NCBI RefSeq assembly: GCF_044324875.1
Contig: NZ_CP172186.1
Reading direction: 5' to 3' (one strand)
Source of the DNA: Escherichia coli
GTDB taxonomy: Bacteria; Pseudomonadota; Gammaproteobacteria; Enterobacterales; Enterobacteriaceae
Length of the DNA: 64,000 nt
Within the stretch, counting starts at the first letter, position 1. Each line of letters starts with the position of its first letter. Shown piece after piece: positions 53,301 to 56,300 of the stretch. The position numbers were made by a program.

Positions 53301-56300
53301 AGACGATCAAGCAACCGGTTAAAACCTGGACGTTCACTGGCTGCTACTGATCCACTAATTTGTTCTTCGATTATTCGTTGGGGTCTGACGTTAAAACCCG
53401 CGCTTTCGATTTCCCGACGTTGATTTTCGGTCGTCTGTTCCAGAGTGGAAACCCGACAATAGGCAAAAATTCGAGACATAGTGAGATCTTCTGTACGAAA
53501 TGGGTGTACATATTATAATGCATGTCCGAAAGTAATTTCGCTGACTTTCGGATATATCTGTTTAACAATGTCCGAAACCGGTCGATTTCGGACACCAAAA
53601 CCACTGTTGTCCCGCCATTCTGGCGATTCCTGAAAGCCCTTTGGCTAAAAAATAGTCTTAACATGGTTTATTTTCCGAATTCCAAACTGACCCCGCTAAC
53701 GCGGAGATACGTCCCGACTTCGGGTAAACCCTCGTCGGGACCACTCCGACCGCGCACAGAAGCTCTCTCATGGCTGAAAGCGGGTATGGCTTAGCAGGGC
53801 TGGGGATGGGTAAGGTGAAATCTATCAATCAGTACCGGCTTACGCCGGGCTTCGGCGGTTTTACTCCTGTGCCATATGCAACAACGGAGTGCCGCCTTAC
53901 ATGCGCTGACGCGCATTATTTGCCTTGTTCCGTCTGAAACTAATCACTATGATTAAATATGATTAACAACTAATCGGGTATGCAAATGAAAAACAATACC
54001 GCACAGGCAACAAAAGTCATTACCGCGCATGTGCCATTACCAATGGCTGATAAAGTCGACCAGATGGCCGCCAGACTGGAACGCTCCCGGGGCTGGGTTA
54101 TCAAACAGGCGCTTTCTGCATGGCTTGCCCAGGAGGAGGAGCGTAATCGCCTGACGCTGGAAGCCCTGGACGATGTGAAATCCGGACAGGTTATCGACCA
54201 TCAGGCTGTACAGGCCTGGGCGGACAGCCTCAGTACTGACAATCCGTTACCGGTGCCACGCTGATGGAACTGAAGTGGACCAGTAAGGCGCTTTCTGATT
54301 TGGCGCGGTTATATGATTTTCTGGTGCTGGCCAGTAAACCTGCGGCCACCAGAACGGTGCAGTCCCTGACACAGGCACCGGTCATTCTGTTAACTCATCC
54401 ACGTATGGGAGAACAGTTGTTTCAGTTTGAACCCAGGGAGGTCAGACGGATTTTTGCTGGCGAGTACGAAATCCGTTACGAACTTAATGGCCAGACTATT
54501 TATGTATTGCGCCTGTGGCACACACGAGAAAACAGGTAGATTGTGTGTGGGGACAACTTAACATAGCCTGCAGATATTAATTCTGGAACATTATTATCAG
54601 GCCAGATATTTTTCATTCCATTAAATAATCTTGTAGGAGATAAAATGAATTACGATGAAATAACGAAAATTACCGCTGAACGTATTAGCGACTACATGAC
54701 CGAAGCAGTTAATACAGACTCTATAGCCGTTGCGGAAATGTTTCATAACGCTGCATGGGGAGTGCGAACATTGTGGTTTGAACTCGTCACAAAAATAGAT
54801 ATGGATATACATAAAAAGAACAGGTATGCGAGTTATGATCTTAGAAGGAAAATCGAAATACAGCATGAAGAGTTTCACGTATAGGAAATTGAAAAACTAA
54901 GCGATACCACTGTCCGCGTCTTATGCCTCGTGCGGTAAGCTGTTTTTCACATCACGCCGGTGTTTTTTCTCTCTGCGTGGTCGGTTTTTATACTGCGGAT
55001 GGGGTTTTTTATCCTTTCCCCGGATTGCTGACACACTTACCCTGTATCAGGCCGGCACATACCTCAGCAGACTGATATCCCGCGCGTTTTTCTTCAGCCC
55101 TGATACATTCAGCCCCGCAAGGGCCCGGCGGTATACCATCCGGCCGCCACACAGCACGCATTCGAACGGGTCACGACTCAGGAACTGTTTCACCATTTGT
55201 GCATAGCACACTTTCGCCACCGGTTCCGGTTTATCCATCCCCAGAGCTCGGTACACCTGCGGCAGCTTCTCTCCACACCCCCGGTTGGCAAGGAACCCGA
55301 AGTACCTCACCATCTTAAAAAACTTCTCCGGGATGTGCTGTTTCATCCTCGCGACCAGCTCACGCTGCGTCAGCGTTTCCGTCGCTGTCTCTCCCGTTTT
55401 GTGGTCCAGGTAACGGAAGCTCAGGCTCGCCCCTCCGTTGTAATGTGCCAGCCGGGAAGCCGCTATTGGTGGCTTCTTCAGATAACGACCCAGGTAGCGT
55501 GCCGTATTCCGCCCGCCGGCCGTCTTCTTCGACATGTACACATGCCAGTATTTTCCGCCGGCTTTCAGCACCAGGCTTCTCCACTGTGATTCCGTCGTGA
55601 TATGTGACAACGACTCCGGCATCGCCATCCCCTCTGACCACGCTTTCAGAAGCAACTGCCGTATATTCCACATCCACCGCGAACGCATTGCGTCTTTCAG
55701 GAAGCTCAGCTTTTTCCACTGACCGTGCTTATTCAGCCCCCCGCAGGTTACTGACACATGTACATGCGGATGCCAGTTGAGACGACGGCCATATGTGTGG
55801 ATGGCGCAGAAGATACCGGGTTCCAGCCCCCGTTTTCGGGCGGCATACAGCAGCCAACGGTTGCTTTCGAACACCGGCCACAGCGTGTCCGGCAGGGTGA
55901 AGACCAGGTGTACCCAGTCGCAGTCAGGAAGACGATTCAGCTGTGTCGCTGTCCACAGGTCTGTGGCCTTTTTTCCGCAGGACGGGCAGGCACGGCTGCC
56001 ACATGAGTTAGTGACGTATCTGACGTGGGGACAGTCAGGTTTATCGCAGTTGTATTCCTTCACGCCCAGTATCCGCGTGCCGCAGGCCAGCATTTTGGTG
56101 ACAGCCTCAACCTCGATATCGCGCAGACCGCCCGCATCCAGGAAGGACGTCCAGCACTGGTTGGCTGTGAACAGGCGTTTCAGCGGACGGGGCTGAAAAT
56201 CACCACCACTTCGGGTCATCCATCCTGCACGCTCCATCTGATAATGTTCTGACAGGTAAAAATAATATCCTGCATGATTTGTGTGCTCATGATTTCTGAT

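Follow-up and report, generated by a model that had tools for sequence, protein, structure and literature searches.

INTRODUCTION

The resolution site (res) of the transposons Tn3 and gamma-delta (Tn1000) consists of three inverted-repeat subsites of 28, 34, and 25 bp, separated by spacers of 22 and 5 bp; these boundaries are used here as given in the established literature. Among other serine recombinases, the hix and gix crossover sites of Hin and Gin are 26 bp long (12 + 2 + 12), and the accessory half-sites at site II of Sin are in direct orientation. In the Tn3 layout, site III lies beside the resolvase gene (tnpR) and site I, the crossover site, lies beside the transposase gene (tnpA) (PMC7157771). 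In this study, we analyzed a stretch of 64,000 nucleotides of Escherichia coli DNA (contig NZ_CP172186.1; the whole stretch is referred to as the window), in which a serine resolvase gene, a predicted res site directly upstream of it, and two terminal inverted repeats (IRs) of the Tn3 family make up an 852-bp unit.

Non-autonomous elements containing res have been described. TIME-RES of Pseudomonas (1186 bp) consists of an IR, the gene for a 309-aa resolvase and the res site from Tn5563, the 60 bp of a TIME proximal to the right IR (IRR), and an IR. It was captured while transposing, with a 5-bp target duplication, and its describers suggested that it serves as a resolution system that is portable (Szuplewska et al. 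2014, PMC4133298). Miniature elements bearing res are also known, namely IS101 and TIME244 (PMC13367494). Different Tn3-family elements are also known to have recombined at res site I, as in Tn5501/TnTsp1 and Tn5501.12, where homology breaks at the center of res site I and mosaics result (Lima-Mendez et al. 2020, PMC7157771).

RESULTS

A serine resolvase gene with a predicted res site upstream

Two palindromes lie directly upstream of tnpR in the window. Judging from conservation in relatives and from natural recombinants, they very probably belong to a genuine res of a Tn3-family-type resolvase, in which palindrome B is the crossover site (site I), palindrome A is an accessory site (site II), and the present copy is itself a recombinant. 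The gene and the features of its upstream region are as follows.

52889-53479, minus strand: tnpR, the serine resolvase gene, assigned from its Pfam domains and its alignment to the gamma-delta and Tn3 resolvases
53569-53594 (center 53581-53582), unstranded: predicted res site I, the crossover site (palindrome B), TGTCCGAAACCG-GT-CGATTTCGGACA, 26 bp
53523-53554, unstranded: predicted res site II, accessory (palindrome A), TGTCCGAAA-N14-TTTCGGATA, 32 bp
53492-53513, unstranded: predicted accessory region III, two direct half-sites (IIIb and IIIa) offset by 13 bp
53492-53500, unstranded: half-site IIIb, TGTACGAAA
53505-53513, unstranded: half-site IIIa, degenerate, TGTACATAT
53512-53517, minus strand: TATAAT, a -10-like element for tnpR, sharing 2 bp with half-site IIIa

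The open reading frame (ORF) of tnpR encodes a 196-aa serine recombinase with the Pfam domains Resolvase (PF00239, 1.1e-38) and HTH_7 (PF02796, 3.3e-09). This is the make-up of a small serine recombinase, in which a catalytic domain with the serine and the arginine/aspartate cluster is joined to a C-terminal helix-turn-helix (HTH). In the alignment, residues R9/S11 and D72/R73/R76 of the window protein correspond to the catalytic residues R8/S10 and D67/R68/R71 of the gamma-delta resolvase, and the ER..LERT motif shared with the gamma-delta and Tn3 proteins is also retained. The matches to the gamma-delta (7e-25) and Tn3 (3e-24) resolvases are only moderate (E ~1e-24), and the match to Sin is weak (1.6e-16). 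In pAPEC-O1-ColBM (NC_009837.1), to which the local region is 99.8% identical, the gene is labelled 'recombinase family protein' and nothing is annotated upstream of it.

The repeat finder placed the arms of palindrome A at 53522-53533 and 53544-53555 and those of palindrome B at 53569-53580 and 53583-53594. In both, the arms are 12 nt each and 92% complementary, with 10 nt between them in palindrome A and 2 nt in palindrome B. The half-site common to both palindromes is the 9-mer TGTCCGAAA. When both strands of the 64 kb were searched, exact copies were found at three positions (53523, 53569, and 53586), all inside 72 bp; the count expected per window from shuffled sequences was 0.46, and three copies were reached in 2 of 100 shuffles. 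Two half-sites with one mismatch belong to the same cluster, TATCCGAAA at 53546 on the minus strand and TGTACGAAA at 53492 on the plus strand. A preliminary description of this DNA had reported two palindromes with a shared half-site, TCCGAAA, immediately upstream of the resolvase gene, and had read them as a plausible res site. Both palindromes are located where it placed them, and two lines of evidence strongly support the reading as res: sites and spacing are conserved in ~67 diverged relatives, and natural recombinants have their breakpoints at the center of palindrome B. The true half-site is longer than the heptamer, at 9 bp. Two further half-sites, 53492-53500 and 53505-53513, which form a third group on the start-codon side of palindrome A, had been missed.

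Toward tnpR, the order is palindrome B, palindrome A, half-site IIIa, half-site IIIb, and the ATG, which is 12 bp from half-site IIIb and 115 bp from site I. Half-sites IIIa and IIIb are oriented like the right halves of sites I and II. An inverted-repeat site III of 25-31 bp was considered and rejected, as its candidate left half (TGCAT before TATAAT) is not conserved. No conserved inverted partner of region III was found among the relatives; the third subsite is thus a direct pair, and the architecture is a variant one. From the conserved TATAAT, we infer a putative tnpR promoter. The overlap of this element with half-site IIIa suggests that the promoter is repressed by bound resolvase, so that the protein, when bound at region III, would probably repress its own gene. 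The consensus scan of 53380-53760 found no terminator, and the Rfam scan of 52500-55000 found no RNA family.

Conservation of the sites among relatives

One genome per species was scanned, which yielded 80 loci with resolvases 68-90% identical to that of the window. These loci span Enterobacterales, Vibrio, Shewanella, Methylococcales, Nitrosospira, Acidithiobacillus, Burkholderiales, and Melainabacteria. After the site filter, 67 non-redundant upstream regions with well-scoring sites I and II were analyzed. The geometry of a 26-bp site, 14 bp, a 32-bp site, 9 bp, and a 13-bp offset was identical in 57 of the 67 regions, and 7 others departed from it only by a 13-bp spacer between sites I and II. 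The 13-bp offset of region III and its 9-bp gap to site II were kept in 64 of the 67, and site II was 32 bp long in every relative with a scorable site. Information content was high in the half-sites and in the TATAAT element, whose TA...T positions were near-invariant, and was ~0 in the spacers and in the 14-bp center of site II. A distant blastn search of PLSDB gave relatives at 70-75% DNA identity in Klebsiella, Shewanella, Raoultella, Pantoea, and Providencia. In these, the similarity to the window ends at 53594-53598, the outer edge of palindrome B, and alignment of six such upstream regions gave three conserved blocks with variable spacers between them. This pattern is a strong phylogenetic footprint of protein-binding sites with fixed helical phasing.

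Among the 68 relatives with enough upstream sequence, a divergent Tn3-family transposase gene lies ~160 bp from tnpR in 13, and no adjacent divergent TnpA is present in the other 55. Because the transposase of such relatives adjoins the side of palindrome B, as in the Tn3 layout, palindrome B is taken to be site I and palindrome A to be site II. The placement is that of a Tn3-family res: the predicted site immediately precedes tnpR, its crossover site is the part farthest from the gene, and in intact relatives it lies between divergent tnpR and tnpA.

Other arrangements were also observed among the relatives. The same res-tnpR module is paired with distant Tn3-family transposases (23-24% identical) in other layouts (L022, L033, L036, L045, and L047; L055 and L077-L079). 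In Mixta and relatives, tnpA is upstream of res-tnpR, and in methanotrophs it is downstream, in both cases co-directional. At L014, a second resolvase paralogue (1268-1864) is divergent from the first and lies 89 bp from site I. A deletion at L019 has brought half-site IIIb up against the right half of site I, and at L018 another Tn3-type IR abuts the tnpR start codon.

Hybrid make-up of the predicted crossover site

The predicted site I of the window is composed of two parts with different relatives. From the start codon onward, window positions 53480-53582 are identical at 102 of 103 positions to a transposon copy on an IncK plasmid (L010). Beyond 53582, L010 is unrelated to the window (30/112 ungapped for 53583-53694) and runs into the start of its transposase gene; PGAP names this product just 'Tn3 family transposase', and the transposon is left unnamed. 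Window positions 53583-53694, on the right side, are identical at 106 of 112 positions to 3001-3112 of L008, the right part of a 286-bp miniature element on another IncK plasmid. The central GT is still of the transposon type and the A at 53585 is already of the miniature-element type, so that the switch falls between them, at the position expected from a staggered cut at the central dinucleotide. When a 171-bp junction probe was used, matches of the left parental type stopped at 53595 and those of the right parental type started at 53583.

Breaks of this kind were found repeatedly among the 80 loci. In the pairs L042/L043, L068/L069, L040/L041, and L014/L024, identity is 96-100% toward tnpR, whereas the opposite sides are unrelated; L022 has a left side like that of L036 and a right side like that of L011. 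The breakpoints of all the recombinant relatives listed flank the central dinucleotide. Together, the recombinants in the window and in at least 8 independent relative pairs are indirect, natural-experiment evidence for strand exchange at the center of palindrome B. The sequence CGATTTCG of the hybrid site I also occurs in L026, L064, and L077, placing it inside the natural variation of the family.

In the mechanism that we propose, the resolvase would cut and exchange strands at the central dinucleotide of site I (53581-53582). A past resolvase-mediated exchange very probably joined a transposon copy (IR-tnpR-res-tnpA-IR) to the res-bearing 286-bp element, removing the transposase and leaving the 852-bp IR-tnpR-res-IR unit (52843-53694). 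As in Tn5501/TnTsp1 and Tn5501.12, the homology breaks at the center of res site I and a mosaic results; unlike in that case, one of the two partners here is a miniature element, the other being a transposon, and the transposase was lost.

Terminal inverted repeats and the extent of the unit

The ends of the unit, its right arm, and the segment that adjoins it are as follows.

52843-52880, plus strand: 38-bp Tn3-family terminal IR at the tnpR end, GGGGTCCGCCTGGAAAACGGAAAATATCCCACGCTAAG, found by pattern scan
53657-53694, minus strand: 38-bp Tn3-family terminal IR at the right end, GGGGTCAGTTTGGAATTCGGAAAATAAACCATGTTAAG, found by pattern scan
53583-53694, unstranded: right arm, apparently from the 286-bp IR-res-IR miniature element, comprising the right half of site I, 62 bp, and the 38-bp IR
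53695-53904, unstranded: second copy of a ~210-230 bp segment from downstream of the IncFII ori ('RepA4'), outside the unit and marking its junction

Between the IR at the tnpR end and the transposase-end IRs of the intact relatives L017, L025, L026, L027, and L037, there are 1-3 base differences; this IR stops 8 bp short of the resolvase ORF coordinate 52889. The right IR of the unit corresponds, with 3 mismatches, to that of the miniature element in L008, and its identity to the IMU IR is 82%. Both belong to the transposon's own IR family. No Tn3-family transposase was detectable in the 64-kb window, and no target-site duplication was present around the 852-bp unit, which is flanked by TCCTT and GCTAA. 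Of the features of an autonomous Tn3-family transposon, namely 38-bp IRs (GGGG...ACGNTAAG), a DDE TnpA, and a 5-bp duplication, the unit has the IRs only. Together, these features fit formation by res x res deletion or exchange and not insertion as a unit.

The preliminary description had also proposed a recombination hotspot joining the resolvase region to a duplicated ~230-bp element. The hotspot idea holds in substance, as palindrome B is itself a hybrid crossover site, but the partner was not the repeat: the crossover at 53582/53583 joins the resolvase module to ~112 bp of a miniature Tn3-derived element. The direct repeat (53692-53904 matches 1487-1699 at 93%) has its first copy ~600 bp downstream of the IncFII RepA ORF, and one record annotates the sequence as RepA4. 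As the repeated segment starts at 53695, directly outside the right IR, its junction is a transposon end and not the res crossover. The two 38-bp IRs that bracket the whole unit had been overlooked.

The unit appears to be an enterobacterial counterpart of TIME-RES. Like TIME-RES, it is non-autonomous, its inverted Tn3-type IRs enclose only tnpR and res, and it is a hybrid of a transposon module and a miniature element, with one arm homologous to a TIME. It differs in that it is 852 bp long, encodes a 196-aa resolvase, is enterobacterial, and has no target duplication, and in that its junction maps to the center of res site I. The position of this junction suggests res x res exchange as a route to such hybrids, which was not shown in the 2014 TIME-RES paper. 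Full-text literature searches for the IR and site sequences returned irrelevant matches only.

The 286-bp miniature element and other small elements

The 286-bp element (L008 2827-3112; also L009 2919-3204 and L091-L094) consists of two 38-bp Tn3-type IRs around a complete three-part res, which has the same 26/14/32 geometry as the res of the window. It is present at full length in 741 PLSDB records, where it is unannotated, and relics of it occur in thousands of further F-type plasmids. No 5-bp target duplication was found at six full copies in six different contexts. Its identification as IS101, IMU, MITESen1, or TIME244 was rejected because the similarity to these is confined to the IRs. 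The element resembles IS101 and TIME244 in that two Tn3-type IRs surround res and nothing else (PMC13367494); it differs from them in its res, which is of the TGTCCGAAA family and not of the Tn3 or Tn21 type.

Partial copies and other small elements were observed. R100-type plasmids have kept only a relic that starts with the right half of site I and extends as far as the IR (L007 3001-3112, p3PCN033, downstream of pemK; thousands of IncFII plasmids). This relic is 82% identical to window positions 53574-53685 and is preceded by a gamma-delta-like IR that abuts it at the position of the site I center. In the window, a lone truncated right end of the 286-bp element (45 bp, the IR and 7 bp) lies at 4162-4206, just 3' of a ProQ/FinO-like ORF, and is followed by another IR-like sequence starting with GGGG. 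The 253 bp at 4398-4650, bounded by inverted Tn3-type IRs (GGGGTTTGAGGCTCAGTGGAAC... and GGGGTTTGGGGAGTAGTGGAAC...), are probably another miniature Tn3-derived element. At 37306-37561, the ends of a 256-bp segment match the ends of IS101 at 80-89% and its interior does not; this is probably an IS101-like miniature element.

Comparison with known resolution and inversion sites

The arrangement in the window resembles that of Tn3 and gamma-delta in several respects. A serine resolvase with a C-terminal HTH is encoded directly downstream of res, the accessory sites are proximal to tnpR and the crossover site is distal, and the predicted resolvase-binding sites overlap the putative promoter region. 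The half-site TGTCCGAAA also resembles the left half of Tn3 site I, CGTTCGAAA. The Tn3 res sequence used here was checked against plasmid sequences and was found at ≥99% identity in at least 436 plasmids (top matches, 100%), beside a recombinase gene. The dimensions differ from those of Tn3 throughout: site I is 26 bp instead of 28 bp, site II is 32 bp instead of 34 bp, the spacer between them is 14 bp instead of 22 bp, the distance between their centers is 43 bp instead of 53 bp, and the gap between site II and the third region is 9 bp instead of 5 bp. The third region of Tn3 is a 25-bp inverted repeat, whereas here it consists of two direct half-sites spanning 22 bp.

Two of the departures from Tn3 have counterparts elsewhere. 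The direct orientation of the accessory half-sites is shared with site II of Sin, and the 26-bp length of the crossover site is shared with hix and gix. Unlike the res of Sin and the beta-recombinase, the site in the window has an extra inverted-repeat accessory site (site II), and a requirement for HU/IHF or Fis is not indicated here. We suggest only tentatively, and consider it rather doubtful at present, that the TGTCCGAAA res family is an undescribed architectural class of Tn3-family resolution site, marked by a crossover site of invertase size (26 bp), a single accessory site that is an inverted repeat, and a single accessory pair in direct orientation, with the 286-bp derivative as a portable docking site for resolvases.

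Distribution and genomic neighborhood

The hybrid junction was found with the junction probe in 108 PLSDB plasmids, 97 of them at ≥99% identity; of 5,426 complete E. coli genomes, 149 contain it. Of the 711 matches that the probe gave in these genomes, 699 lie on plasmids and the remaining 12 on chromosomes. The hybrid arrangement is thus stable and common, with 99-100% conservation in ~100 plasmids, and no feature is annotated under the junction match in any of the listed records of PLSDB and RefSeq. Collinearity of the window with NC_009837.1 over the 64 kb was rejected. The record is that of a related plasmid with a local match only, and the coordinates in it that would correspond to window positions 1-5000 contain tra genes (traG/traS/traT), where the window contains IncFII repA.

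Beyond the unit, the window carries a ribbon-helix-helix (RHH) antitoxin and ParE toxin pair at 53980-54539, ~290 bp past the IR, and an IS91-family (Y2 transposase) gene at 55047-56339, ~1.5 kb from the unit (Pfam Y2_Tnp, 1.5e-57). In relatives, toxin-antitoxin genes directly adjoin site I, as ccdAB at L006, a CcdB-like ORF at L046, and a RelE-like ORF at L023. Toxin-antitoxin pairs have been associated with res site I in Tn3-family transposons (PMC7157771).

DISCUSSION

Several observations weigh against the identification of the site as a res of a Tn3-family-type resolvase. The solved structures nearest to the protein by sequence are DNA invertases (Gin, 7e-30) and not resolvases (gamma-delta, 7e-25). 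The subsite sizes and spacers of Tn3 and gamma-delta are not matched, and of the three subsites, only sites I and II are inverted repeats. Region III is not an inverted repeat as in Tn3 and gamma-delta, and half-site IIIa has 4 mismatches in the window. No sigma-70 promoter passed the consensus scan of 53380-53760, in which no matching -35 element was found. The central dinucleotides of the nearest available parents differ (GT versus TA). Serine recombinases are normally blocked by, or poorly tolerant of, mismatched central dinucleotides; either the event was a rare one, therefore, or the dinucleotides of the true parents were matched. A literature search found no binding, cleavage, or resolution experiment for this resolvase. 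With these points taken into account, the conserved geometry and the recombinants still make a genuine, recombinant res very probable.

By descent, the module is a transposon cointegrate-resolution system, and the alternative that survives best concerns its present role. The site could be a true res that is merely left over from a decayed transposon and has no role in plasmid maintenance. The missing Tn3-family transposase, the missing target-site duplication, and the degenerate half-site IIIa are all consistent with decay, and a related ColBM plasmid has another site-specific integrase ~7 kb away. Against this stand the intact ORF with all catalytic residues, the 99-100% conservation of the hybrid arrangement in ~100 plasmids, and a hybrid site I that falls within the natural variation of the family; we therefore regard such a relic as possible but on balance unlikely. 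Given that tnpR and its sites are both intact and conserved, multimer resolution, and with it plasmid stabilization, is a plausible function of the unit. The unit would act as a self-contained resolution system, in which two res copies in a plasmid dimer are recombined to give back monomers.

It is very improbable that the palindromes are operators only, used for repression of transcription by the resolvase or by a different regulator (the neighboring RHH antitoxin, for example) with no recombination involved. A conserved -10-like TATAAT does lie inside the site cluster, and the Tn3 resolvase is known to repress from res (PMC7157771). An operator alone does not account for the breakpoints, which in the window, as in many independent relative pairs, fall exactly at the center of palindrome B. 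Sites I and II, upstream of the -10 element and 6-82 bp away from it, also exceed what an operator needs, and the sites accompany the resolvase in contexts without the RHH/ParE pair.

Even less probable is a DNA invertase of the Hin/Gin type with palindrome B as its inversion crossover site. The best sequence matches in the PDB are to Gin, as noted above, and site I has the 12 + 2 + 12 size of hix and gix. However, all copies of TGTCCGAAA in the 64-kb window fall in one cluster, which leaves no invertible segment; conserved accessory sites II and III are a feature of resolvases, and intact relatives pair the gene with a Tn3-family transposase. Chance repeats, a terminator, or another hairpin-forming element can practically be dismissed: dyad symmetry alone speaks for them, against three exact 9-mers within 72 bp where 0.46 are expected per window, no terminator-like site and no Rfam match in the scans of the region, a 'loop' of just 2 nt in palindrome B, and conservation that lies in the arms, with fixed spacings across phyla, which already refutes this explanation.

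A genuine res that has itself recombined is an ordinary kind of plasmid feature, and the understanding of the resolvase mechanism is unchanged by it. The analysis provides exact coordinates for a predicted res site, its probable crossover point, and two transposon ends, none of which is annotated in ColV/ColBM virulence plasmids, and offers an explanation of a mosaic junction in these plasmids as the product of a resolvase. It also indicates a widespread, unannotated miniature element that bears res. Sites of this type are places where resolvases cut and rejoin plasmids and are preferred targets of res-hunting transposons, so their annotation aids the reading of plasmid evolution. If the 286-bp derivative does serve as a docking site, virulence and resistance plasmids of enterobacteria could be rearranged through it by resolvases, and cassettes with only a resolvase could arise in this way.

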